Sequence record: NC_028927.1 | Length of the DNA: 64,000 nt | Direction: 5' to 3' (one strand) | Source: Escherichia phage slur02 | Part shown: piece by piece, positions 1,160 through 62,583 of the stretch | How the letters are laid out: the number at the start of each line of letters is the position of its first letter | Numbering within the stretch: position 1 is the stretch's first letter | Notes under the pieces: model-generated | The model's input: the letters and a program-made list of their open reading frames with translations, nothing else | The model's database searches: none | Told to the model about the DNA's origin: nothing | Program-made: the position numbers and the translations under genes

Positions 1160-1795
1160 TCACAGTTCAGATGCTACGGTGATTACTGCTTCAATGTTTT
1201 CTGCCGAGCGTTTAATGTCAAGATACACATTACCGTTTTTAGCGATTTTACATGACATTCCGATATCAGTAAATTTCTGAATATGATGTTCCATCATTTT
1301 GTATCCAAAAATTCGCATATTTCCATTGTTGTTAATTTCAAAATTGCGAATTCCGTGAGTGCGTTTTTCTAAAATAGCAAGATAGTTACTGCGGTAAGTT
1401 TCAACCTTTTTAAGAACAAATCCATTTTCATCTAAAAGTTTTAACATGAAGTCTTTATCTTCTTCCATATCGGAAGTAATCTCACGAGCTTTACGAGTCG
1501 CCCGTTTTTTCAGTAGTTCAGGAGCATTTTCCTGCGCATATAAAGTTGCTGCATTTGAAATAATATCCTGAGCTTCACCAGTAATGATTAATCCATCACC
1601 AGATTTCTCCACCAGGCCTTTTTTAATCAATACCCCAATATTACTATTAACTACTGCGTTACCTAAATCTGGATGCACCTCACGAACTTCTGCAGCTGTA
1701 ATGAAATCTTTCTTAGCAATAGTAATTAAAATCGCAGCGGTTTTTTCATTCAGAACATCGTTAGAAGCTTTGATGATGTAAGTTACTTTAGACAT
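1160..1795 (-). CDS. motA: MotA, activator of middle-mode transcription
   Basis: 211 aa, N-terminus MSKVTYIIKASNDVLNEK matches T4 MotA as recalled; GGAG SD upstream; early promoter upstream. Confidence 0.9.
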   Translation of the reverse strand: MSKVTYIIKASNDVLNEKTAAILITIAKKDFITAAEVREVHPDLGNAVVNSNIGVLIKKGLVEKSGDGLIITGEAQDIISNAATLYAQENAPELLKKRATRKAREITSDMEEDKDFMLKLLDENGFVLKKVETYRSNYLAILEKRTHGIRNFEINNNGNMRIFGYKMMEHHIQKFTDIGMSCKIAKNGNVYLDIKRSAENIEAVITVASEL

Positions 1796-1829
1796 TTTCT
1801 AATCTCCGTAATTCTGTATCAGTAGTTGA

Positions 1830-1872
1830 TAGTTGTATAGTACCACAGTATGCTTTGGTTGTAAACCGTTTT
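1830..1872 (-). promoter_or_regulatory. T4-type early promoter upstream of motA
   Basis: Minus strand AT-rich UP region, GTTTAC -35, 17-nt spacer, TACTAT -10. Confidence 0.6.
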
Positions 1873-1896
1873 GTGAAAAAAATTTTAAAATAAAAA

Positions 1897-1916
1897 GGGA
1901 GAGCCAAGGCTCTCCC
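1897..1916 (-). terminator. intrinsic terminator hairpin
   Basis: GGGAGAGCC / GGCTCTCCC stem followed by U-tract on minus strand. Confidence 0.6.
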
Positions 1917-1921
1917 TAAAA

Positions 1922-4828: not shown

Positions 4829-4835
4829 ATTTTCC

Positions 4836-4949
4836 TCACATAAATCCAAAGTAAACGTTTAATACATCAATCATTAAAACGATTGGGAATATACTCAAAA
4901 CTATTAGTATTATAACTACATTCCATATAGCTTTAATAATCTTTTTCAT
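4836..4949 (-). CDS. small membrane peptide (37 aa)
   Basis: MKKIIKAIWNVVIILIVLSIFPIVLMIDVLNVYFGFM; the longer track ORF contains an early promoter, so start moved to ATG after GGAGGAACAG. Confidence 0.35.
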   Translation of the reverse strand: MKKIIKAIWNVVIILIVLSIFPIVLMIDVLNVYFGFM

Positions 4950-5192
4950 TTTCTGTTCCTCCGTAGTTGATAGGGTAATAATACCACGGAAGAACAGTCC
5001 TGTAAACAACTTTTTTAAAAATATTCGTAATAAATGTGAATACCAACTACTACCGCTGAAACCTGTGCAACCCACCACGCACAAGCAATAAGTACAGAAT
5101 TCATAATTTTCATAATAACCTCATCACAAAAGTAAATGTTAAACAAATTACTGGAATACTAATTAACCAAACAAAACACCACCATAGTGAAC

Positions 5193-5465: not shown

Positions 5466-5668
5466 TAATCCGCTAAAAGATCGACGATTGCATCACGAAG
5501 ACACTTATTCGCAATACGTTTAAGAGCAATTTCAGTTTCTGGAGCATTTTGAATAATCATCGAATTCAACTCAGCCTCAGCAAACTGAAGTTCTTTAACT
5601 AGTTCAGCTTTATATTTCCCTTGCCCTTTCTTAGCCTTTGCCCGTTTTAATTCAGCTGTAGTAAACAT
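5462..5668 (-). CDS. hypothetical protein (68 aa)
   Basis: Track ORF trimmed to ATG after conserved leader TTGGAGAATAAAATG. Confidence 0.5.
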   Translation of the reverse strand: MFTTAELKRAKAKKGQGKYKAELVKELQFAEAELNSMIIQNAPETEIALKRIANKCLRDAIVDLLADY

Positions 5669-5695
5669 TTTATTCTCCAAATCCGTATCAGTTGA

Positions 5696-5738
5696 TAGTT
5701 GTATAGTACCACAGTCCTTGTGGTATGTAAACTGTTTT
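5696..5738 (-). promoter_or_regulatory. early promoter with conserved leader
   Basis: GTTTAC, about 17 nt, TACTAT, followed by leader ending TTGGAGAATAAAATG. Confidence 0.55.
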
Positions 5739-5750
5739 ATGAAATTTTTT

Positions 5751-6308
5751 TTAAATAGAAAGATACCATCCGTTGTAGTTGCTTTTTCTTACAACCTTAC
5801 GAAGGTCTTCTCTGTCACCGATGAACTTCGGAGTGTACTGGATGACACCTGGATGAATTTCTTTAGTGTTGAATATAATTATACAGTCCGCGACTTGATG
5901 ATTTAGAATGGGCCCTAGATTTATTCCAGAACCGTATGGATACTCTCCGCTGCATCCTGTTGTTACAGAAATCCAACGTGAGTCAGTTTGGTGTGTCTTA
6001 ACTTCTACACGAAGCCCGCAGTATCTTGGATGCGCCAATACATCCCATGCGTATGTATACGGGTCATTAACATCTTCTTGACCTTTATTAACATATCCGC
6101 TTAGCCAATCTGCCACAAAAAACTCTGCGTACACAGCGATACGACATCTTTCGATAACTTCTGCTTTATCCTGGTTCGGGTTTTGTTTTAAAGAGTATCT
6201 TGCTGTATCAGCAATTTTGACCTTCATTTCACTAGTCAAGTCACTGTTCGATAGGGTAAATGTCGGAATCTGAAATAGTCTCTGTAAACCCGGATTCGTT
6301 TTCTGCAT
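5751..6308 (-). CDS. denB: DenB, endonuclease IV
   Basis: 185 aa as in T4 DenB; synteny next to rIIB. Confidence 0.8.
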   Translation of the reverse strand: MQKTNPGLQRLFQIPTFTLSNSDLTSEMKVKIADTARYSLKQNPNQDKAEVIERCRIAVYAEFFVADWLSGYVNKGQEDVNDPYTYAWDVLAHPRYCGLRVEVKTHQTDSRWISVTTGCSGEYPYGSGINLGPILNHQVADCIIIFNTKEIHPGVIQYTPKFIGDREDLRKVVRKSNYNGWYLSI

Positions 6309-6570: not shown

Positions 6571-6587
6571 AATTTTTCCTTAAAACA

Positions 6588-6605
6588 AAAGGGCCGAAGC
6601 CCTTT
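6588..6605 (-). terminator. UUCG-tetraloop hairpin
   Basis: AAAGGGC-UUCG-GCCCUUU then U-rich run. Confidence 0.5.
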
Positions 6606-6608
6606 ATT

Positions 6609-6803
6609 TTACTTGAATTGTGCAATTCTTTTCTCTAGACATTCAGCATAAGATTTCATTGAGATGAACTGTGAAAGTAGTAGTTCTTGCTCAACTGCAC
6701 TAACTGTTAGAAACTTTGCGCTTTCTAAAAATTTGTTCAGTGCATTAATTTTGAGCATTAATTGATCGTATTCTTCTTTTACTCGTGCTTGATAACCTAA
6801 CAT
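6609..6803 (-). CDS. hypothetical protein (64 aa)
   Basis: Track ORF between rIIB and denB; flanked by hairpins. Confidence 0.5.
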   Translation of the reverse strand: MLGYQARVKEEYDQLMLKINALNKFLESAKFLTVSAVEQELLLSQFISMKSYAECLEKRIAQFK

Positions 6804-12072: not shown

Positions 12073-12098
12073 ATTATACTCCAGTAATCATAAAGCTA
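12073..12098 (-). promoter_or_regulatory. MotA-dependent middle promoter candidate for gene 39
   Basis: MotA-box-like AGCTTTA, 12-nt spacer, TATAAT; immediately after UUCG hairpin. Confidence 0.5.
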
Positions 12099-12115
12099 AA
12101 GGCCCGAAGGCCTTT
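12098..12115 (-). terminator. UUCG-tetraloop terminator downstream of lipoprotein gene
   Basis: AGGCC-UUCG-GGCCU then UUU. Confidence 0.55.
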
Positions 12116-12384
12116 TATTTAAAACGGATAGTCGAATCCTTGAAGAATAGACCAGAACATACTGTTCCTTCTACTTTCTGCCCAGTAGGTCCAACAGCAC
12201 GAAATCCAGTGTGTTGGAAATCATTTTCAGAGCAACCGAACCAGTTATATCCAGTGATTTCAATATTAGTAAAACCGCTTGAAGATAAAACTTTGGTTGC
12301 ATTATCAGCATCAGTACATCCTACTAAAGATACTGCTAATACTAATGCTGCAATAGAACGATTAATATATTTCATAATTTTCAC
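12115..12384 (-). CDS. small lipoprotein (89 aa)
   Basis: Signal peptide with lipobox (LVGC); terminator hairpin downstream. Confidence 0.6.
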   Translation of the reverse strand: MKIMKYINRSIAALVLAVSLVGCTDADNATKVLSSSGFTNIEITGYNWFGCSENDFQHTGFRAVGPTGQKVEGTVCSGLFFKDSTIRFK

Positions 12385-13581: not shown

Positions 13582-13851
13582 TTAATTAAACAGTGGAGCG
13601 ATGCGTTTCAGAAGAGTAGCAGCACCTTTGGCGAATTTTACATCATGAAAAACAGTTTCTTCTTCCGTTACAACACGAGCTTTAATGTTTTCACAATCCC
13701 AATTTTTGCGAACAATCTTCAAAAGCTGCAGTAAATCTTTACATTCAGCAATATCGATAACACATCCACGAGAATCTTCCATTATCGCACGATAACCGTA
13801 AGCCATACCATAATCGTTGAAAGATTGCTCGATGATAATTAAGTTTTCCAT
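13582..13851 (-). CDS. hypothetical protein (89 aa)
   Basis: Track ORF trimmed to ATG after TTGGAGAATAAAATG leader. Confidence 0.5.
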   Translation of the reverse strand: MENLIIIEQSFNDYGMAYGYRAIMEDSRGCVIDIAECKDLLQLLKIVRKNWDCENIKARVVTEEETVFHDVKFAKGAATLLKRIAPLFN

Positions 13852-13948
13852 TTTATTCTCCAAGTTGTTTTCTGTATCAGTAGTTGATATTGATATAGTA
13901 CCATAATCAACTACTGATGTATATAGTTTTATGAAAAAATTTTAAACT

Positions 13949-21313: not shown

Positions 21314-21517
21314 TCACGATTTATCCCCATAGATGTCTCTCATCAATTTAAGCGCTGAGCGTTCTAATTTCTTTTCTTTCTCAGCACTAATCATTGATTT
21401 CATCCATTCTTCCGATTCGTTCTGCATTTCTTTATTTGCTTGTTCAACCCAACCATCATCAATGTACATTGAGTTTGGTCTATTGAACCATTCAAGCATT
21501 TTCTTCAGAACTTTCAT
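21314..21517 (-). CDS. hypothetical protein (67 aa or shorter)
   Basis: Track ORF; start uncertain because of overlap. Confidence 0.4.
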
Positions 21518-21989
21518 TTGTTTTACCTAAAACAACAGTAGGAGCATCATCAAATTCATGAATTTTTAGCAAATTTGGATGTAAACTATTCCATACAGAA
21601 GAAATAAAGTATGATAAAGCATCTTCACTCACAATTATAAATTTATTTCCTTTATCTATTTTCCAGCTATATACTGAATCATACGAATAGAAAGATAAAG
21701 GTTTATCATTATATTGTTCTGCGCTAACATTGATGTATTCGGATTTAGTAAATGCTTCAATTGCTCTAAACGGAATATTTGGTACAGTTTCAATAATTCC
21801 GATCTTTTTAAGTTTTATTTCAGCATCTTCTGGAACTGGCATTGAAACAAAATTTTCTACGAGATACATTGGGTCACAATAACCCTTATCAATCATTACT
21901 GCTACGGTAATTGGAACGTCTTTAGCAAACGACATACTATTACTGCTAATATACATTTCAAACAAAATCGCTTCCATAATTTTCCTCAA
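21492..21989 (-). CDS. hypothetical protein (165 aa)
   Basis: Track ORF; ATGA coupling. Confidence 0.5.
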
Positions 21990-22555: not shown

Positions 22556-22592
22556 TTTTATTATACCATACTCATTTTGGAAAGTAAACCGG
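22556..22592 (-). promoter_or_regulatory. early promoter just downstream of soc terminator
   Basis: GTTTAC, 17 nt, TATAAT. Confidence 0.55.
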
Positions 22593-22603
22593 TAAAATGA
22601 AAA

Positions 22604-22626
22604 AAGGACTCCCGAAGGAGTCCTTG
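22604..22626 (-). terminator. soc terminator
   Basis: AAGGACUCC-UUCG-GGAGUCCUU then UUUUUCAUUUU, immediately after soc stop. Confidence 0.75.
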
Positions 22627-25115: not shown

Positions 25116-25280
25116 TTACTCTTCTTTTTCTTTAGATTCCTCTTTTTTCTTTTTAGGAATCTGTTCAGGGCCTTTATTTACTACAGCGCCTGACGTTGTT
25201 CCAATAGAGATATTTTCAGGATTACCACCTGAATCTCCAGCGACCATATCTTCTTTAATAAATTCTTTATATGTTTTCAT
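25116..25280 (-). CDS. small protein (54 aa), 61.1 position
   Basis: Hand-translated MKTYKEFIKEDMVAGDSGG...; TAA-T-ATG coupling. Confidence 0.5.
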   Translation of the reverse strand: MKTYKEFIKEDMVAGDSGGNPENISIGTTSGAVVNKGPEQIPKKKKEESKEKEE

Positions 25281-25325
25281 ATTAACCTCTATTCATAAAA
25301 GCATTAAAAATTTGGTCATCAATAG
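25278..25325 (-). repeat. 48-bp direct repeat copy 1 (gene 3' end plus stop/start junction)
   Basis: Near-identical to 25636..25683 (1 mismatch). Confidence 0.8.
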
Positions 25326-25638
25326 ATGGAATAGCAACCTTTTCGGCATCATTTAGCAAATCATTAATTTCATCAGATAGCATAACACATGTGCCTTTAT
25401 TTCCTGTAATTGTTACTGCACAATTACGAACGTTTTCTTTATCAAATTTTAGGTTAATATTTTCGTAGTGAAAATCCTTTAATGCCGAATATATCTTTAA
25501 AATGAAATTGTCTTTTACTACAATAAACCCAACTTCACTATTAAAACGTGGTTCATGGAAACTGTAATAAACCTTTTCATCTATGAAATCGTATGAAATT
25601 TTTTCCATTTTTAAATATGAAAATTCAGAACTATACAT
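25282..25638 (-). CDS. hypothetical protein (118 aa)
   Basis: Track ORF; C-terminal 14 aa shared with 25640..26266. Confidence 0.5.
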   Translation of the reverse strand: MYSSEFSYLKMEKISYDFIDEKVYYSFHEPRFNSEVGFIVVKDNFILKIYSALKDFHYENINLKFDKENVRNCAVTITGNKGTCVMLSDEINDLLNDAEKVAIPSIDDQIFNAFMNRG

Positions 25639-25683
25639 ATTAATCTCTATTCATAAAAGCATTAAAAATTTGGTCATCAATAG
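25636..25683 (-). repeat. 48-bp direct repeat copy 2
   Basis: Near-identical to 25278..25325. Confidence 0.8.
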
Positions 25684-26266
25684 AAACATTTACTTTAGAC
25701 TGTTTTTCAGATGGCAATTCATATCCACATATTACAATTTTATGATCAATATCAAAATACACAGAAGCAATATGATTAATGATATTTTCAGTGAAGTCTA
25801 AATCGACATCAATATCTTTTTGACCAAATCCCAGAGGATAAATAATGCGAGTAATTCGATTATCTTTAACAAAGATTCCACCGACATACTCTGTACTGCG
25901 TTTAAAGTCTACACGCCGACGAAATGAAAAATATTCAGGCTCTTTATGAGCTCGGCTCATAGGACACAACGAATAACTAGAATAAGAGATGTCAAATCCT
26001 ACGCCTTCGATATGAGCCAAAGTGTCATGATTAAACCAATTATAATCGTACGCCAAATCCATTAGATTATAATATGTAAAAGGCACCGGATTAACATCAT
26101 TAGTCACAAGCATGTAATTAGCAACTGCTATAATTTCATTGTTTTTAACGAATACAAACCGTGATTGATGCGAATGACCTGGACCCGCGTTTTCACGATT
26201 AATGATATAACACTGGGCACCTTTATATTTGTATGTATCTTTGCACTTGTGCATTTGATAGAGCAT
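25640..26266 (-). CDS. hypothetical protein (208 aa)
   Basis: Track ORF; shares C-terminal SIDDQIFNAFMNR with neighbour. Confidence 0.5.
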   Translation of the reverse strand: MLYQMHKCKDTYKYKGAQCYIINRENAGPGHSHQSRFVFVKNNEIIAVANYMLVTNDVNPVPFTYYNLMDLAYDYNWFNHDTLAHIEGVGFDISYSSYSLCPMSRAHKEPEYFSFRRRVDFKRSTEYVGGIFVKDNRITRIIYPLGFGQKDIDVDLDFTENIINHIASVYFDIDHKIVICGYELPSEKQSKVNVSIDDQIFNAFMNRD

Positions 26267-32535: not shown

Positions 32536-32772
32536 TCAAATGCAAGTAGTAATTACTCCAGTAGTGCTTATGCAGGTATTACCCATTTGCACACCTAAAG
32601 ATCCATTGGTATTCACATGAAGATTATCATCAATTTTAACTGATATTTTACCATTAGTGTGAATAACGGTGCTAGATTCAATCACAGGTTGAGTATCATT
32701 TTCAACACTAACAAATGGAACTGCTGCTAATGCAACTAAACAAACTGCTAAGCATCCCATAACAATTTTCAT
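32536..32772 (-). CDS. secreted small protein (78 aa)
   Basis: Track ORF trimmed to ATG after TTGGAGAATAAAATG leader; N-terminal signal peptide. Confidence 0.5.
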   Translation of the reverse strand: MKIVMGCLAVCLVALAAVPFVSVENDTQPVIESSTVIHTNGKISVKIDDNLHVNTNGSLGVQMGNTCISTTGVITTCI

Positions 32773-32802
32773 TTTATTCTCCAAATCTGTATTAGTTGAT
32801 AG

Positions 32803-32840
32803 TTGTATAGTACCATGGAAGAACAGTCTTGTAAACAGTT
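32803..32840 (-). promoter_or_regulatory. early promoter with conserved leader
   Basis: Same module as at 1830, 5696, 57505, 58944 and 62514. Confidence 0.55.
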
Positions 32841-32922
32841 TTGTGAAATTTTTTTAGGGAATCCAAAGGGTCCAGAATCATCTGTTTTTCATAAGTATAG
32901 ATTTATATTACTTGTATGAAAA

Positions 32923-35685: not shown

Positions 35686-35707
35686 CTTGATATATTATAC
35701 TCCAAAT

Positions 35708-35725
35708 AAGGGGCCGAAGCCCCTT
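35708..35725 (-). terminator. UUCG hairpin downstream of regA
   Basis: AAGGGGC-UUCG-GCCCCUU; weak U-tract, may be a stability element rather than a terminator. Confidence 0.4.
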
Positions 35726-35727
35726 GC

Positions 35728-36096
35728 TTAATTACCAATCGTATATTTAGGAACGAGTTTCCATTCATGTTTTTGTTTAAAAGAAATAACTCGGAAGTTA
35801 TTAGTTAAATCTTTCATAAAAGTTCTTTGACCAGGAACGATTTCAATCAGTCCCCAATCTTCTAATAGCCATGCAATCGAATCACGACGAACTTCATCTT
35901 CTTCTGTCATTTCAACTTGACGACCATCCATACGAAGCATTTCTTTAAAATGAACGATATAGTATAGTCCTTTTTTCTGAAGAATATGACAGGACTGATA
36001 CAGAACTTTATCTTTATTATTAGCAATTCCCATACGAGTCAAAGTTTCTTTTACTTTCAGAAAATCTTCAGGTTTTTTAAGAGTAATTTCAATCAT
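35728..36096 (-). CDS. regA: RegA translational repressor
   Basis: 122 aa as in T4 RegA; directly upstream of gene 43. Confidence 0.85.
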   Translation of the reverse strand: MIEITLKKPEDFLKVKETLTRMGIANNKDKVLYQSCHILQKKGLYYIVHFKEMLRMDGRQVEMTEEDEVRRDSIAWLLEDWGLIEIVPGQRTFMKDLTNNFRVISFKQKHEWKLVPKYTIGN

Positions 36097-37622: not shown

Positions 37623-37656
37623 AATTTCCTCATTCAAGTTTTAGTGTAAATTATAA

Positions 37657-37670
37657 AGGGCCGAAGCCCT
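37657..37670 (-). terminator. UUCG hairpin between genes 45 and 44
   Basis: AGGGC-UUCG-GCCCU then UUAUAAUUU. Confidence 0.45.
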
Positions 37671-37673
37671 CTA

Positions 37674-38360
37674 TTAAAAATCGTGGGTAGAATCAGCTTC
37701 AAGAGCTACTACATAATTCGCGTGTTCACCTTCAAATTTAGCAGCACCTTGTTTACCTTTTGCCCAGAGCAGAAGTTTATAATTTCCTGGTTGCATTTTC
37801 ATATTTGCCATATTGATAATGAAATTAAATGTATTTTCACCATCATAATCACCAAGAGTCAAAGAATATTTAACACGAGTCAAAGCAGAATCTTCTACTT
37901 TATTAAAACCGTTAATTACGATTTTACCTTCTTTTACTGTGATAGCAATTGTATCAATCTGCAGACCACGAGATACACGCAACAGCTGTTGAAGGTCTTC
38001 AGCTTTAATTTCAGTAACAACAGATGCTACCGGGAATGGAATTGGTTTATTAGGAGCAACTACTGTACTCGGATCGGCTGCTGGCCAAAAAATTGTTGAA
38101 CGGGCATCAGCAATTTTAATATTACCATCTTCTGACTGGGAAATTTCTGCATCGTCATTAACTAGAGACAGAATACCGAGAAAACCGTTCAAATCGTAAA
38201 TTGCTACATCAAAATCAATAGTGTCAGAAATATTTGCTTCTGCATAAGTTGTACCATTAACTGCGCGAGTCATAATAAATTGACCGGATTTAAGCATAAT
38301 ACCAGAGTTAATAGTAGCGAAATTTTTAAGCAGAGCAGTAGTATCTTTAGACAGTTTCAT
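37674..38360 (-). CDS. 45: gp45 sliding clamp
   Basis: 228 aa as in T4 gp45. Confidence 0.9.
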   Translation of the reverse strand: MKLSKDTTALLKNFATINSGIMLKSGQFIMTRAVNGTTYAEANISDTIDFDVAIYDLNGFLGILSLVNDDAEISQSEDGNIKIADARSTIFWPAADPSTVVAPNKPIPFPVASVVTEIKAEDLQQLLRVSRGLQIDTIAITVKEGKIVINGFNKVEDSALTRVKYSLTLGDYDGENTFNFIINMANMKMQPGNYKLLLWAKGKQGAAKFEGEHANYVVALEADSTHDF

Positions 38361-42338: not shown

Positions 42339-42365
42339 ATTATATCAAACTCCGTATAAAGCTAA
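42339..42365 (-). promoter_or_regulatory. MotA-dependent middle promoter candidate upstream of gene 47
   Basis: AGCTTTA, 12 nt, TATAAT directly after a-gt terminator hairpin; near-identical in layout to 12073..12115. Confidence 0.45.
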
Positions 42366-42381
42366 AGGGCCGAAGCCCTTT
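42364..42381 (-). terminator. terminator downstream of a-gt
   Basis: AAAGGGC-UUCG-GCCCUUU overlapping the a-gt stop codon. Confidence 0.55.
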
Positions 42382-43582
42382 ATTTTGTAATAATGTCAAA
42401 CTGTTCTTTAAAGCAGAAGCTTGAATCTTGATGCTGATACAAAAATTCATACGCTTTTTCTCGCTCACGGTCATAAAGAGCTCGGTCAGATGACAGTTCT
42501 TTAATACGTTCAAACGTTGATTCCATATCATTTTCATCAAACCAAACGATACCGCTATCATGCGAGGTCAAAGGAGTATTATCAACACGGAATTTTAAAT
42601 TTTCGCCAGTAGATTTCCAAAATACCGGAATTGTTCCACATGCACCAAGCTCGAGGTGAGTATATTCTAAAGAGCGCTGTAAATATTTTTTGTCCAACTT
42701 ACTCAACTGATAACCAAATCCGGATTTACTCATACGTTCAAGCATTTCGCTATTTACATAACGGTCAAGAATTTGCGTTGGCAAATTAGGAGCAATTTTA
42801 ATTTGGTCTACTTGATGAAGACGATAATACTCGTATGGAATTCCTTTTTCTTTAATAGGAATGAACGCTGGAGAACGTTCCAGACCTTCCATAATAGTAC
42901 TTAGTCCTGCAGGTTTAAGATGTTTTTCGTGAAAATCAAACATCTGATAAAAACCTTTCCATGTAGTCGTACGACCAATCCAGCGGTTGATATTCATATT
43001 AATTTCAGAAACATCTTTCCAGTAGGTTGACCGAACCTTCGCAATATCCATAGGAGGCTGAAAGTTATATACTGTCGGCGCTTCTTCAATATCATCAAAC
43101 AAAGAAACTGTTTCAGGATACCATTCTTTCATCAGAACTTTATTAAAATCACCATTATCAGAATGGCTAAAAATAACATCAGCTCGACGAACAGTTTCTT
43201 CTAATCCCAAATTTCGACGCAAAGAAAGAGAAGAATGGTCATGCTGATAAACTACAACACGAACAGAAGGTTTAATGTTATCAATAATTTTTTTATAGTT
43301 ATTAATAGTGTCTTCTTCAACCGAAGTAGCAGGAACTGAATTGATAATTAGAATATCACAATCATTTACCAGCTTAAGTGTTTTATCGTATTCTTTTGAC
43401 AATAAAACCGGAATTGAAAATGATTTATAATCATGTGCACAGTTACGAGTAAATGATTTATCTTTAGCATAAACCAAAGTTACTTCATGACCATTTTTAA
43501 TAAACCAATCACGTTGCTCAAGAGAAAATTTAGTTACACCACAACCTTCAAGACCTCGAGCCATAAAAATACATACTTTCAT
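42380..43582 (-). CDS. agt: alpha-glucosyltransferase
   Basis: 400 aa as in T4 a-gt; N-terminus CIFMARGLEGCGVTKFSLEQRDWF. Confidence 0.9.
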   Translation of the reverse strand: MKVCIFMARGLEGCGVTKFSLEQRDWFIKNGHEVTLVYAKDKSFTRNCAHDYKSFSIPVLLSKEYDKTLKLVNDCDILIINSVPATSVEEDTINNYKKIIDNIKPSVRVVVYQHDHSSLSLRRNLGLEETVRRADVIFSHSDNGDFNKVLMKEWYPETVSLFDDIEEAPTVYNFQPPMDIAKVRSTYWKDVSEINMNINRWIGRTTTWKGFYQMFDFHEKHLKPAGLSTIMEGLERSPAFIPIKEKGIPYEYYRLHQVDQIKIAPNLPTQILDRYVNSEMLERMSKSGFGYQLSKLDKKYLQRSLEYTHLELGACGTIPVFWKSTGENLKFRVDNTPLTSHDSGIVWFDENDMESTFERIKELSSDRALYDREREKAYEFLYQHQDSSFCFKEQFDIITK

Positions 43583-45965: not shown

Positions 45966-46003
45966 ACATTATCCTCAATTACGTTAAAATTTTATTATCC
46001 AAA

Positions 46004-46020
46004 AAGGGCCGAAGCCCTTA
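46004..46020 (-). terminator. UUCG-tetraloop terminator
   Basis: AGGGC-UUCG-GCCCUUUUUGG. Confidence 0.6.
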
Positions 46021-46218
46021 GCTAAACTTTTTGGCACCCTTCCAGCCTTCATACATCATTGCGGCTGATATTAATATTGCTCCTGAGCAACTTGAATATT
46101 TGTGATTCCAAAACCAGTTTAGAAAAACTTCGTCATCAATACCTTGGGCTATCATATTTTCAAAGAACTGACGACGAGCTTCGGCAATTCGCTGCGATAA
46201 TTTAGATTCAGGATTCAT
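46018..46218 (-). CDS. hypothetical protein (66 aa)
   Basis: Track ORF; UUCG terminator hairpin overlaps stop. Confidence 0.45.
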   Translation of the reverse strand: MNPESKLSQRIAEARRQFFENMIAQGIDDEVFLNWFWNHKYSSCSGAILISAAMMYEGWKGAKKFS

Positions 46219-56948: not shown

Positions 56949-57476
56949 TTATGCGAGTACCGTCTTTAACCGTTCTTCAAACTTCCGAAGAGTATTCTGG
57001 CGTTCAGCTCTTTGCTTTTTGTAAGTTTCAATACGCTCTGAAATGAGAGTGTATCGTTCATTTACTGATTCTTTCATAAAATCAGGAATTTCACGAGAAG
57101 CTTTAATCTCGTCAAATTTATCAATAACAGCTTGCTCTTCAGCAATTAAGTTATCATACATCAAAATATCTTTCTTGATGAACTCAATATCTTCTTGAGT
57201 TACACGAGATAATTTAGATGCTTTATCCTTTTTGTACTGTTCGTTAGTATCACGAGACCAGTGTAATGTACGATTTTTATTCGTATTTTTGTAAATTTCT
57301 ACAATACCAATCTCATCAATAATAACGATCCAATTCCAACGAGATTTGTAAATTTGCCCTCCATCAACTGTGATTTCACCTCCGATTGAGATGTCATTAA
57401 AGAACTTGCTTTGTGCTTCTGATTTAAATTTACCATCATTGTAATTTACCAGGTTGAAAATATCTTTAGCGTTCAT
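56949..57476 (-). CDS. hypothetical protein (175 aa)
   Basis: Track ORF; early promoter module upstream. Confidence 0.5.
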   Translation of the reverse strand: MNAKDIFNLVNYNDGKFKSEAQSKFFNDISIGGEITVDGGQIYKSRWNWIVIIDEIGIVEIYKNTNKNRTLHWSRDTNEQYKKDKASKLSRVTQEDIEFIKKDILMYDNLIAEEQAVIDKFDEIKASREIPDFMKESVNERYTLISERIETYKKQRAERQNTLRKFEERLKTVLA

Positions 57477-57504
57477 TTTCTGTTCCTCCGTAGTTGATAG
57501 TTGT

Positions 57505-57538
57505 ATAGTACCACAGAGGAACAGTCTTGTAAACCACT
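57505..57538 (-). promoter_or_regulatory. early promoter with conserved leader
   Basis: Conserved module GTTTAC...TACTATACAACTATCAACTAC. Confidence 0.55.
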
Positions 57539-57851
57539 AAAAGAAACTTCTTTCACAATTTTTTCCACTGAACCACGCGCTCACTGCTTTCTTAGTCTCA
57601 GGAGCAGTGTTATCCATAAACCATTCAAAGGCAGCCTTTTTATGATTCTGGAGGGCTTCTCGGGCTTTAATCTGCTCACGGTCTATTAACACTAACATAT
57701 GAGCCTTTCTTGTCACCAAGGGCTTCTTATGATTTTTTGAATACTCCCAGTCATTTGTCCATCGCATTGTCGTTGCGAATTGAAATACAGCTTCTTTAAT
57801 TTTAGTTTCGTAAATTTCACGAGCCTTTGAGTATAACATCATTACCTCCAT
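57537..57851 (-). CDS. hypothetical protein (104 aa)
   Basis: Track ORF. Confidence 0.45.
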   Translation of the reverse strand: MEVMMLYSKAREIYETKIKEAVFQFATTMRWTNDWEYSKNHKKPLVTRKAHMLVLIDREQIKAREALQNHKKAAFEWFMDNTAPETKKAVSAWFSGKNCERSFF

Positions 57852-57940: not shown

Positions 57941-58909
57941 TTATTTCAGAAGAGTAACCTCAGCAATTTCTTCCCAACCGTTTTTGTCGGTCATAATAAA
58001 GTCAGCAAGATAAAGAGCAGTACGCAGTGAAACATTGCGTAAACGATTAACATTGACTTTCATCCATGATAATGCTTTATAAGTTTCTTCATCAGAAAGA
58101 CCGCGCTTTTGCATCATGTCGGTTGAAAGAATAACATCTTCAACCCTGACCATAATTTCTTCATTAGTGTGAACACCCAAATCCAAATAAACTGAGCGGG
58201 ACACTAATGCTTGTAAATGTGGAGCAAGTTTAGTACCACGGTCTAATTCGCGGTCAATGTCAACGTTTGTGATAAAAACAATCGTTCCTTTAAATTCAAA
58301 CTCACGCTCAATGCCTTTTTCTTCTAAGTAAGAAGATGCAGTGCTCCAGCAGACTTTACGGGTCTCTCCAGTGTCCAGAGCAGCTTTCAGAAGATTAAGA
58401 ATGTCCATATCAGAGAAAACATCCACATCATCAATCAAAAGGACAGAATTCTCTTCACGATTATTCCAAAGCTGTTCATAAAGACCGATACCGGAGATTT
58501 TACCGTTAATGCTTTTATATTCAATGTATCCAATATCATTTGCTTTATTTAAAGCTTTATCTAAAGAATACGTTTTACCAATACCTGCCGCACCAGAGAT
58601 AATTAATGAACGAATGTTTCCGTTAATAATACCATTCGTCATCATTCCCATAACATTAAATCTTTTATTAATGCGGGTTTTCATATCTTCATACGATTCT
58701 TTAACTTCTTCAACTTTTACACCATCATATGAAATGTCTGATTTGTAAACCCAAACACCGCGACGTTTACCGTCAATTTCAACAAAAACTTTACCATCTC
58801 CTTGCGCATCTACCGGAGCATTATCTGGGAACCATTCGCCTAAGAGCTCAAAAGTTCCAGAGATTTCTTTACCGAAGTAGATACCCTTATTGATAGTTAC
58901 AGTTTTCAT
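57941..58909 (-). CDS. predicted AAA+-like P-loop ATPase (about 322 aa)
   Basis: Walker A GAAGIGKT, Walker B LLIDDVD, sensor-1-like FITN; start set to ATG after TGGAGAATAAA; own early promoter. Confidence 0.6.
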   Translation of the reverse strand: MKTVTINKGIYFGKEISGTFELLGEWFPDNAPVDAQGDGKVFVEIDGKRRGVWVYKSDISYDGVKVEEVKESYEDMKTRINKRFNVMGMMTNGIINGNIRSLIISGAAGIGKTYSLDKALNKANDIGYIEYKSINGKISGIGLYEQLWNNREENSVLLIDDVDVFSDMDILNLLKAALDTGETRKVCWSTASSYLEEKGIEREFEFKGTIVFITNVDIDRELDRGTKLAPHLQALVSRSVYLDLGVHTNEEIMVRVEDVILSTDMMQKRGLSDEETYKALSWMKVNVNRLRNVSLRTALYLADFIMTDKNGWEEIAEVTLLK

Positions 58910-58943
58910 TTTATTCTCCAAATCCGTATCAGTTGATAGTTGT

Positions 58944-58976
58944 ATAGTACCATAAAGCTTTATGCTTGTAAACAAC
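58944..58976 (-). promoter_or_regulatory. early promoter upstream of AAA+-like gene
   Basis: Conserved module followed by TTGGAGAATAAAATG. Confidence 0.55.
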
Positions 58977-59003
58977 TTTGTGAAAAATTTTTGAAATAAA
59001 AAA

Positions 59004-59021
59004 AGGGAGCCCGAAGGCTCC
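59004..59021 (-). terminator. terminator downstream of nucleotidyltransferase gene
   Basis: GGGAGCC-UUCG-GGCUCCC then UUUUUUUAUUU. Confidence 0.75.
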
Positions 59022-59024
59022 CTA

Positions 59025-62300: not shown

Positions 62301-62488
62301 TATTCCACCACATATGAAAGAGAGAATATTGCACACGCCATGTGAGTTGCAACTTCATCACACATATTATAACGTTTCTTAAGAAATTCTACAAGTTCTT
62401 CACTAGTAACTTCATCCATGTCGACGAAAAAATCACCATTAATGATGACGTAGATATTTCCTTCTTGATTAAGTGCTTCAATTTTCAT
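62300..62488 (-). CDS. hypothetical protein (62 aa)
   Basis: Track ORF trimmed to ATG after AAAGAGGAG SD. Confidence 0.45.
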
Positions 62489-62513
62489 GATGTTCTCCTC
62501 TTTATCCGATAGT

Positions 62514-62548
62514 TGTATAGTACCACAGCTCAAACGGAAAGTAAACCG
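62514..62548 (-). promoter_or_regulatory. early promoter with conserved leader
   Basis: GTTTAC, 17 nt, TACTAT; directly after UUCG terminator. Confidence 0.55.
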
Positions 62549-62562
62549 GTAAAATGAAAAAA

Positions 62563-62578
62563 GTCTCCCGAAGGAGAC
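62563..62578 (-). terminator. terminator downstream of rI.-1-position gene
   Basis: GUCUCC-UUCG-GGAGAC then UUUUUUCAUUUU. Confidence 0.7.
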
Positions 62579-62583
62579 TAATG

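Follow-up and report, generated by a model that had tools for sequence, protein, structure and literature searches.

A consensus for the early promoters of phage T4 is reportedly that of Liebig & Rüger (1989, J Mol Biol 208:517). T4 early promoters are described as combining an UP element, a -35, a TGn motif and a -10 with 'additional regions of consensus' (PMC2988021), and published logos place a T at -7 and the start at 0 (PMC1524935). T4 early mRNAs also carry strong sites for RegB and S1, with the consensus GG*AGRAYARAA, and RNA structure shields from RegB cleavage (PMC3014915). A second body of work concerns promoter-early stem-loop (PeSL) cassettes, which were described in RB49/phi1 (Arbiol et al. 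2010, PMC2839356) and then extended to PST/T4, including the ndd locus, and to nt-1/KVP40 (Comeau et al. 2014, PMC4122927). Modular shuffling proceeds through these terminator-promoter-Shine-Dalgarno (SD) cassettes; the crossovers were mapped to the stretch from the -10 to the SD/ATG, and mini-circles were detected (PMC2839356). Recombination in T4 at microhomologies of 6-10 bp is experimentally established (PMC9391042).

Here we analyse a set of repeated promoter-leader modules in a 64-kb stretch of T-even phage DNA, the whole of which we call the window. The module set is real and it is already known, being covered by the T4 early-promoter consensus, the RegB sites and the PeSL model of modular shuffling taken together. 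We consider it very probable that the modules are T4-type, sigma-70-dependent early promoters, each joined to a very short leader, and that constraint and recombination together keep the copies alike.

The window is the classical T4 early/middle region (arn-motA-52-ndd-denB-rIIB-rIIA-39...dda-modA...43...nrdC.x-mobD.x-rI-tk), and nearly all of its annotated genes lie on the minus strand. Over the first 8 kb, Escherichia phage slur04 and sister isolates (genus Tequatrovirus) are 100% identical to it and hundreds of T-even phages are ~95-97% identical. Annotation was taken from the slur04 record, NC_042130.1, where window positions 1-21614 correspond to 145685-167298; from window position 21615 on, the window coordinate equals the NC_042130.1 coordinate plus 21487, and the record ends overlap by 127 nt.

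Anatomy of the modules and their T4 counterparts

A 17-nt core, GGTACTATACAACTATC, occurs seven times in the window at no more than 3 mismatches, on the minus strand only, against a chance expectation of 0.04 for the 64 kb; six copies are exact and the remaining one (13886-13902) has 3 mismatches. An annotated CDS starts exactly at the 3' end of all seven modules (ATG positions in Table 1), and when direct repeats of the window were ranked by an independent repeat finder, the modules made up the leading families (8 x 71 nt, 7 x 77 nt and 4 x 96 nt). An earlier sequence-only reading of this DNA had listed seven minus-strand modules, and all seven stand at the coordinates it gave; what it missed is an eighth, partial copy with a diverged core, whose spacer and leader are like those of copy 5 and which the repeat finder, in one family, scores at 82%. 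The ATG of this eighth copy starts a small ndd.4-like ORF that is unannotated.

Table 1. Coordinates of the module copies and their elements (window positions; elements listed in the direction of the minus strand)
Module	Span	Strand	Upstream elements and -35	-10 and core	Start and leader	ATG
Copy 1, motA early promoter	1793..1917	-	terminator hairpin 1917-1896; UP ~1890-1868; -35 GTTTAC 1866-1861	TGG + -10 TACTAT 1845-1837; discriminator ACAACT 1836-1831	predicted +1 1830; leader 1830-1796	1795-1793
Eighth copy, partial	4947..5030	-	-35 5007-5002	TGG TATTAT, -10 4983-4978; core diverged to TACCCTATC	leader AACTACGGAGGAACAGAAA	4949
Copy 2	5666..5751	-	-35 5732-5727	-10 5708-5703; core 5710-5694	predicted +1 5696; RegB-consensus/SD block GGAGAATAAAA 5678-5668	5668-5666
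Copy 3, degenerate	13849..13943	-	-35-like TATATAC ~13925-13919	-10 13900-13895; core 13902-13886	RegB-consensus/SD block 13861-13851	13851-13849
Copy 4, downstream of DNA polymerase gene 43	32770..32855	-	-35 32836-32831	-10 32812-32807; core 32814-32798	RegB-consensus/SD block 32782-32772	32772-32770
Copy 5, nrdC.8 homologue	57474..57553	-	-35 57534-57529	-10 57510-57505; core 57512-57496	leader AACTACGGAGGAACAGAAA	57476-57474
Copy 6, nrdC.10 homologue	58907..59023	-	terminator hairpin 59023-59004; -35 58973-58968	-10 58949-58944; core 58951-58935	RegB-consensus/SD block 58919-58909	58909-58907
Copy 7, mobD.5 homologue	62486..62579	-	terminator hairpin 62579-62562; -35 62546-62541	-10 62522-62517; core 62524-62508	leader GGATAAAGAGGAGAACATC	62488-62486

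Read 5' to 3', the modules run through an A/T-rich UP region, the -35, a spacer, TGG plus TACTAT, the stretch ACAACT, then ATC(AACT), a variable stretch, the GGAG of the SD and the ATG. GTTTAC, 17 nt of spacer and the -10 are found together in six of the seven copies; in copy 3 TATATAC takes the place of GTTTAC, in agreement with the earlier description of that copy as degenerate, and the TGG-extended -10, TGGTACTAT, is present in 7/7. Five copies keep the UP block AAAA(A/T)TTTTTCA(C/T)AAAAC (also AAAA(A/T)TTTTTCAYAAAAC), and copies 5 and 7 have another A/T-rich stretch at its position. A G+C-rich hairpin followed by a T-run, the signature of an intrinsic terminator, lies directly upstream of copies 1, 6 and 7; at copies 2, 4 and 5 a terminator scan found no convincing upstream stem-loop. 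In copy 3 spacer and leader are reverse-complementary (arms 13876-13895 and 13899-13918), giving a hairpin around the -10 (-20.2 kcal/mol, z -5.6) that is reminiscent of RB49. When the copies are aligned, conservation goes beyond the -35 and -10 hexamers: the UP block, the -35, TGGTACTATACAACTATC and TTGGAGAATAAAATG are conserved, and the 17-bp spacers vary in sequence. The alignment thus does not show the restriction to the hexamers that the sequence-only reading had named as its refutation.

Transcription probably starts at the A of ATCAAC, as judged from standard spacing, a position with which the published logos agree (PMC1524935), and the 5' UTRs measured from this predicted +1 would be ~22-37 nt long. 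A literature search for genome-wide T4 5'-end maps turned up nothing usable. The conserved transcribed block claimed by the sequence-only reading, the 28-mer GTACTATACAACTATCAACTACTGATAC, is exact in copy 1 only and, with up to 3 mismatches allowed, is found in just one more, since elsewhere ACT is missing or the sequence changes past ...CTATC. It also consists mostly of the -10 hexamer and discriminator.

The same modules are present in T4, at motA (163651), ndd.6 (167064), cef (6608), imm.1 (27058), nrdC.8 (53921), nrdC.10 (55362) and mobD.5 (58758). The core at these seven loci is identical to that in the window and the leader mostly so, and further T4 copies stand at e.8 and frd.3. The nrdC.10 module, the orthologue of copy 6, appears in the T4 record U76612.1 as 'early promoter 54.4', with its terminator, -35 and -10 annotated, and the -35/N17/-10 arrangement is found before early-region genes, which together uphold the view of the module as an early promoter plus leader. 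Compared with T4 early promoters in general, the modules share the UP element, the -35 GTTTAC, the 17-bp spacer, TGn, a TAnnnT -10 and extra conserved positions near +1, and they do so at the same loci (motA, nrdC.8, nrdC.10, mobD.5, imm.1 and others) with identical sequence. There is no substantive difference; the window copies form a TACTAT/ACAACTATC subclass.

How large that subclass is can be seen from the early promoters of the window at large. The minus strand has about 19 promoters of the form GTTTAC-N17-TAnnnT with an SD and an ATG, the plus strand a single GTTTAC-type match, and the core is carried by 7-8 of the ~19. Since only about a third of the early promoters have the core, those that do are a distinct subclass. 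A generic sigma-70 scan gave 55 promoter-like matches in the window and 60 in shuffled sequence and, with matches no commoner than in shuffled sequence, such a scan cannot discriminate in this AT-rich DNA; its use, and that of the terminator scan run with it, was confined to confirming the hexamer coordinates and the three terminators.

If the modules are indeed T4-type early promoters, host RNA polymerase would bind the UP element, the -35 GTTTAC, the 17-bp spacer and the TGn-extended -10 TACTAT, open the A/C-rich discriminator ACAACT and start at the A of ATCAAC, and the resulting short, unstructured 5' UTR would end in the GGAG SD. Promoter activity in the phage of the window is in this sense a prediction from sequence. 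Where constraint acts within the module can be stated more closely. A 47-nt block that runs from -17, 2 nt upstream of the core, to the ATG is found at 95% identity or more in 345 phage records, nearly all of T-even type. Orthologous modules taken whole show no extra conservation, with 4.35% mismatches against 4.15% for the window on average, and the core and the SD are the only invariant parts, where the invariance of the core among IMG/VR instances is by construction because those instances were retrieved by exact core match. The RNA polymerase footprint covers the stretch from -15 to +3, which does not vary among the copies, so that for this part a constraint at the level of the promoter is more likely than one at the level of the RNA. 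Other T4-like genera have the same architecture with cores of their own that are internally uniform (AGACCTATC, TACCTCATACC, AGTCTTATC, AGACCTATCAAC), and function alone therefore does not dictate the exact T4 sequence. A looser motif, nnnC(C/T)TATCAA near +1, recurs in many distant T4-like genera.

Cores that differ by lineage raise the thought, conceivable though rather improbable, that the segment from -15 to +7 (TGGTACTATACAACTATCAAC in T-evens; AGACCTATCAAC and TACCTCATACC in sister genera) is read by a phage-specific factor or is a recombination hotspot for cassette capture, kept long and uniform by selection. If either were true, the core would mark a subclass of promoters under separate regulation, evolving together with its phage lineage. 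In a related proposal, the core/start region TACTATACAACTATCAAC is an operator for a phage factor and sets apart a separately regulated subclass of early promoters, with Alt-modified polymerase or a factor of early-transcription shut-off as candidates. The presence of the core in 7/19 early promoters and its lineage specificity are both consistent with such an operator, as are reports that Alt stimulates some early promoters only and that the mechanism of early shut-off is called unknown (PMC2988021). Yet the TATCA..TGATA inverted repeat is variably spaced (N5 vs N2) and absent from 3/7 copies, which is unlike a dimeric operator, the Alt effect could not be traced to any one position when P8.1 was mutated, according to the review (PMC2988021), and the subclass drives functionally unrelated genes. 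We regard an operator, whether for Alt-modified polymerase or for a shut-off factor, as improbable.

Probable gene exchange at the modules

T4 and five T-even contigs of IMG/VR, a small panel of 6 genomes that are mutually related and not independent, were set against the window, and 28 distinct loci of indel or replacement emerged. The edge of such an event falls within the module or no more than 20 nt from its ATG at 5/7 modules and at 1/12 other early promoters (Fisher p=0.0095), an enrichment that is modest against a null of indels at any gene start. The suggestion that the modules are recombination sites flanking exchangeable cassettes, for which a comparison of cassette boundaries had been proposed as a check, is supported by these edges and by the mosaic spacers and cassette transfer described below, with the rider that several junctions need SD/ATG microhomology only.

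The individual loci show what is gained and lost. At copy 2, downstream of denB, there are three arrangements after the ATG: an ORF beginning MFTTAEL plus an ORF beginning MKFKFYY in the window, MKFKFYY alone in the five contigs, and only the last 8 codons of MKFKFYY in T4, with the junctions at GAG(AA)TAAAATG repeats. Copy 4 would drive an extra 78-aa ORF in the window and imm.1 directly in T4, with the repeat ATGAAAAT at this locus. At copy 3, a 200-bp deletion in T4 and four contigs begins 8 nt past the ATG (edge 13841-13845). At the motA locus three contigs have a 75-aa ORF (cassette MKFKIEN...) between a core-type promoter and a second promoter, the modules sharing 23 nt, and at copy 6 (nrdC.10) two contigs have two or three extra ORFs behind a core-type promoter, with edges inside the module. 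The junctions vary in place: some fall within the core, others at the SD or in the ORF itself, 8-14 nt from its start, and three of the five module events (5666, 13844, 32759) involve only 5-10 nt of A-rich SD/ATG microhomology, or nested deletions, and do not need the long core.

Two further points bear on how the association is read. Abrupt shifts in identity to relatives, as homologous exchange without an indel would leave, show no enrichment at modules (2/38 at p<0.001, versus a background of 14%). Accessory genes that vary may tend to have strong promoters, which would produce the same association without a causal role for the modules, and the association could partly reflect this. Mosaic boundaries occur throughout the compared genomes.

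The modules themselves are mosaic, in that the same upstream flank and spacer are joined to differing leaders and genes across relatives. The spacer of the frd.3 promoter is of nrdC.10 type in T4 and of e.8 type in three other phages; the ndd.5 promoter, at the locus of our eighth copy, has a diverged core in T4 and the window and a full core with the nrdC.8 spacer in contig L032. Within the window, 62536-62563, which comprises the terminator tail and -35 of copy 7, is identical over 28 nt to 22579-22606, and the -10 regions of the two differ. Exchange also reaches across genera. A terminator-to-terminator island (module, e.8 and hairpin) is shared at 92% identity by T4 and a phage with a MotA of only 52% identity, and the flanks of the island are unrelated between the two phages. 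A two-ORF cassette is 88% identical at the nucleotide level (94-96% aa) between a T-even contig and a genus in which the adjacent nrdC.10 is 69% identical (73% aa). The homology of this cassette starts at the ATG, which is fused to a T4-type module, and on which side of nrdC.10 the same cassette gene lies, upstream or downstream, differs among phages.

Could the copies have become alike without any exchange? By pure functional convergence, each would have been optimised independently, and recombination would have had no part in either their likeness or the movement of genes. Several of our observations would suit this: the invariant stretch from -15 to +7 inside the polymerase footprint, the recurrence of nnnC(C/T)TATCAA around +1 in many distant T4-like genera, the fit of the SD block to a functional consensus, and the lack of enrichment of identity-shift breakpoints at modules. 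But convergence does not account for spacers that should be free of sequence constraint and yet are common to paralogous loci and differ between orthologous ones (frd.3; ndd.5 in L032), for the 28 nt of terminator tail and -35 that recur exactly before unlike -10 regions, or for the difference in indel edges between modules and other early promoters, and the use of AGACCTATC, TACCTCATACC and AGTCTTATC in other genera means that the exact T4 sequence is not required. We therefore think convergence by itself unlikely.

We favour instead early promoters whose near-identity would have two causes: functional constraint on the promoter, the start region and the SD, and homogenisation or exchange through the phage's very active short-homology recombination. 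The same 17-47 nt stand in direct orientation before many small accessory genes, so crossovers could swap single-gene cassettes and leave expression intact. Crossovers within the module or at its SD-ATG end would insert, delete or swap cassettes, and we infer recombination as the cause of the junctions from where they lie. Copies 1, 6 and 7 would then be self-contained terminator-promoter-SD units of the kind named 'PeSL'.

The comparison with PeSL cassettes is close. Both consist of an AT-rich region and a sigma-70-type promoter with an SD and ATG at the 3' end, to which T-even PeSLs add a stem-loop just upstream; both are dispersed direct repeats in hyperplastic early regions that are tied to insertions, deletions and replacements; and both have crossovers between the -10 and the SD/ATG. 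The ndd-locus exchange in the window is at the very locus of T4/PST Fig. 6A (PMC4122927). The differences are that the upstream terminator, the defining stem-loop of the T-even type, is found at only 3/7 window copies, and that several window junctions need SD/ATG microhomology only.

Leaders and predicted RegB sites

All seven leaders have an SD with GGAG at 7-9 nt from the ATG. The SD block of four copies, GGAGAATAAAA, is identical to the consensus published for strong RegB/S1 sites, and the continuation to TTGGAGAATAAAATG, which had been noticed earlier in several copies, is found in four (ATGs 5668, 13851, 32772 and 58909). The window matches the 11-nt consensus GGAGRAYARAA exactly at 4 places, where 0.48 would be expected, and none of them is outside a module copy. 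The SD of the copy 1 leader, at motA, is GGAGATTAGAA and matches the consensus at 10/11 positions; copies 5 and 7 match it at GGAG only. In T4 such sites are cleaved, and the window sites, which lie in a similarly unpaired context, are predicted from the consensus. A 462-nt gene annotated as 'endoribonuclease' in slur04, with the size and position of T4 regB, lies just outside the window, and the ORF adjoining it is labelled RegB; both assignments are those of the annotation. We predict that the RegB endoribonuclease, together with ribosomal protein S1, cuts at GGAGAATAAAA in the four copies. Because the SD block is itself the RegB/S1 consensus there, the mRNA would be translated efficiently at first and soon afterwards inactivated.

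The sequence-only reading had also raised selection on the leader RNA and proposed folding of the leader as a check. The first idea survives in part, in the form of an SD that conforms to the RegB/S1 consensus; the part that would involve RNA structure does not. Taken to its end, that part would make the transcribed block a structured cis-regulatory RNA (riboswitch, attenuator or thermosensor) or a small RNA. Sequence is indeed conserved downstream of the -10, and some leaders could form a weak 5'-terminal hairpin of 4-5 bp (UAUCA...UGAUA). Yet none of the seven leaders is more stably folded than its shuffled controls (MFE -0.2 to -5.8 kcal/mol, z -0.7 to +0.95), and an Rfam scan found no family at gathering score anywhere in the window. 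The leaders are moreover only some 22-37 nt long and of six different types downstream of one core, and a fold would block access by RegB and the ribosome (PMC3014915). With both the folding and the Rfam scan negative, we dropped a structured leader RNA, which we consider very unlikely.

Cassettes, seams and landmarks

Phage 'morons' are expressed from prophages, and integrons use an integrase and structured attC sites. By analogy, the modules may be seen as turning small accessory genes into self-contained expression units bounded by regulatory repeats, as in morons and integron cassettes; unlike in integrons, exchange here appears to be homology-driven, with no recombinase involved. That the modules are mobile-element ends or sites for a site-specific recombinase (integron-like attC/attI), and not passive homology, is hardly credible: cassettes flanked by two modules would fit, and the original PeSL paper detected mini-circles and left homologous versus site-specific exchange open (PMC4122927, PMC2839356), but no integrase or transposase is annotated in the window and the junctions vary in position, some with 5-10 nt of microhomology only, such scattered junctions and short microhomology being typical of homology-driven exchange.

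The window thus adds one more T-even genome with near-identical promoter-leader units, in each of which a transcription start would be joined to ribosome binding and to programmed cutting by RegB. Early promoters kept alike by constraint and recombination would also be seams for the gain, loss and exchange of small accessory genes, even across genera, and many of the accessory genes borne by modules are candidates for host takeover or anti-defence. The modules are practical pointers to the places at which T4-like genomes are plastic or open to engineering. They are also good landmarks in annotation, both for early transcription units and for small ORFs that tend to be overlooked, such as the one that starts at ATG 4949.

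A hairpin at the degenerate module and cores of other lineages

In the degenerate third copy of the early promoter-leader module, the start of the leader, ATCAACTACTGAT, is the reverse complement of the spacer, ATCAGTAGTTGAT, and the -10 is thereby enclosed in an RNA hairpin (-20.2 kcal/mol, z -5.6). T4 has the same spacer/leader arrangement at about 6608, and the hairpin resembles the stem-loop that overlaps the -10 in the RB49-type PeSL, the promoter-early stem-loop cassette. The hairpin may act on motB read-through transcripts.

Phages of other T4-like lineages also contain T4-type core modules, in two of the compared sequences (L055, about 9667; L023, about 335-850 of the alignment), where they lie within short high-identity islands with unrelated flanks. 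NrdC.10 is 78% identical in the first of these phages, and MotA 52% identical in the second. Across the nrdC.10 regions of 37 T4-like phages (L048-L084), every lineage favours a sequence of its own between the -10 and about +15 (AGACCTATCAACTAC, TACCTCATACCAAACAAATAG, AGTCTTATCAAATCAAA and ACTCCTACACAAACA); what these have in common is a loose C(C/T)TA(T/C)CAA motif surrounding the start site.

Repeats and deletions at module and non-module sites

One exact 28-nt repeat, CTTTTTTCATTTTACCGGTTTACTTTCC, joins a terminator tail to a -35, and the -10 and leader attached to it differ between its two loci. In IMG/VR contig 2974787500_000001, a T-even genome, deletions of ~45-50 bp affect two separate module copies, one at the motA locus (L018/L036) and the other at the nrdC.10 locus (L034/L051); each takes away the terminator T-tract, UP element and -35 but spares the -10, core and leader. 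These deletions could reflect genuine inactivation of the promoters or a fault in the assembly.

Elsewhere, a gene start is spanned by a 49-nt direct repeat (98% identity between copies), and between the two copies lies a 309-bp segment that T4 and three IMG/VR relatives lack; in the comparison with these four, the alignment overlap at the segment is exactly 49 nt. The segment is a cassette gained or lost via a repeat other than the promoter module.

Further features of the window

A family of six nearly identical G+C hairpins, AAAGGGC-TTCG-GCCCTTT, has the appearance of terminators between genes or of stability elements. A stable hairpin of the UUCG type is a classic feature of T4. Downstream of the partial eighth module is a small ORF, MKKIIKAIWNVVIILI..., similar to T4 ndd.4, for which the slur04 RefSeq record has no annotation. 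That record, NC_042130.1, has the same 127 nt at both ends, so the window passes from the record's end to position 128; the repeat is probably an overlap left behind when a circularly permuted genome was assembled.

Window coordinates of the hairpins, repeats and small ORF
Feature	Position	Strand or detail
Third-copy hairpin	13876-13918	minus
28-nt repeat	22579-22606, 62536-62563	minus
49-nt direct repeat	25278-25326, 25636-25684	
UUCG hairpins	6581-6610, 12091-12120, 35701-35730, 37648-37677, 42357-42386, 45996-46025	tetraloop on minus
ndd.4-like ORF behind the partial module	4829-5014	minus; ATG 4949
slur04 end repeat	21488-21614
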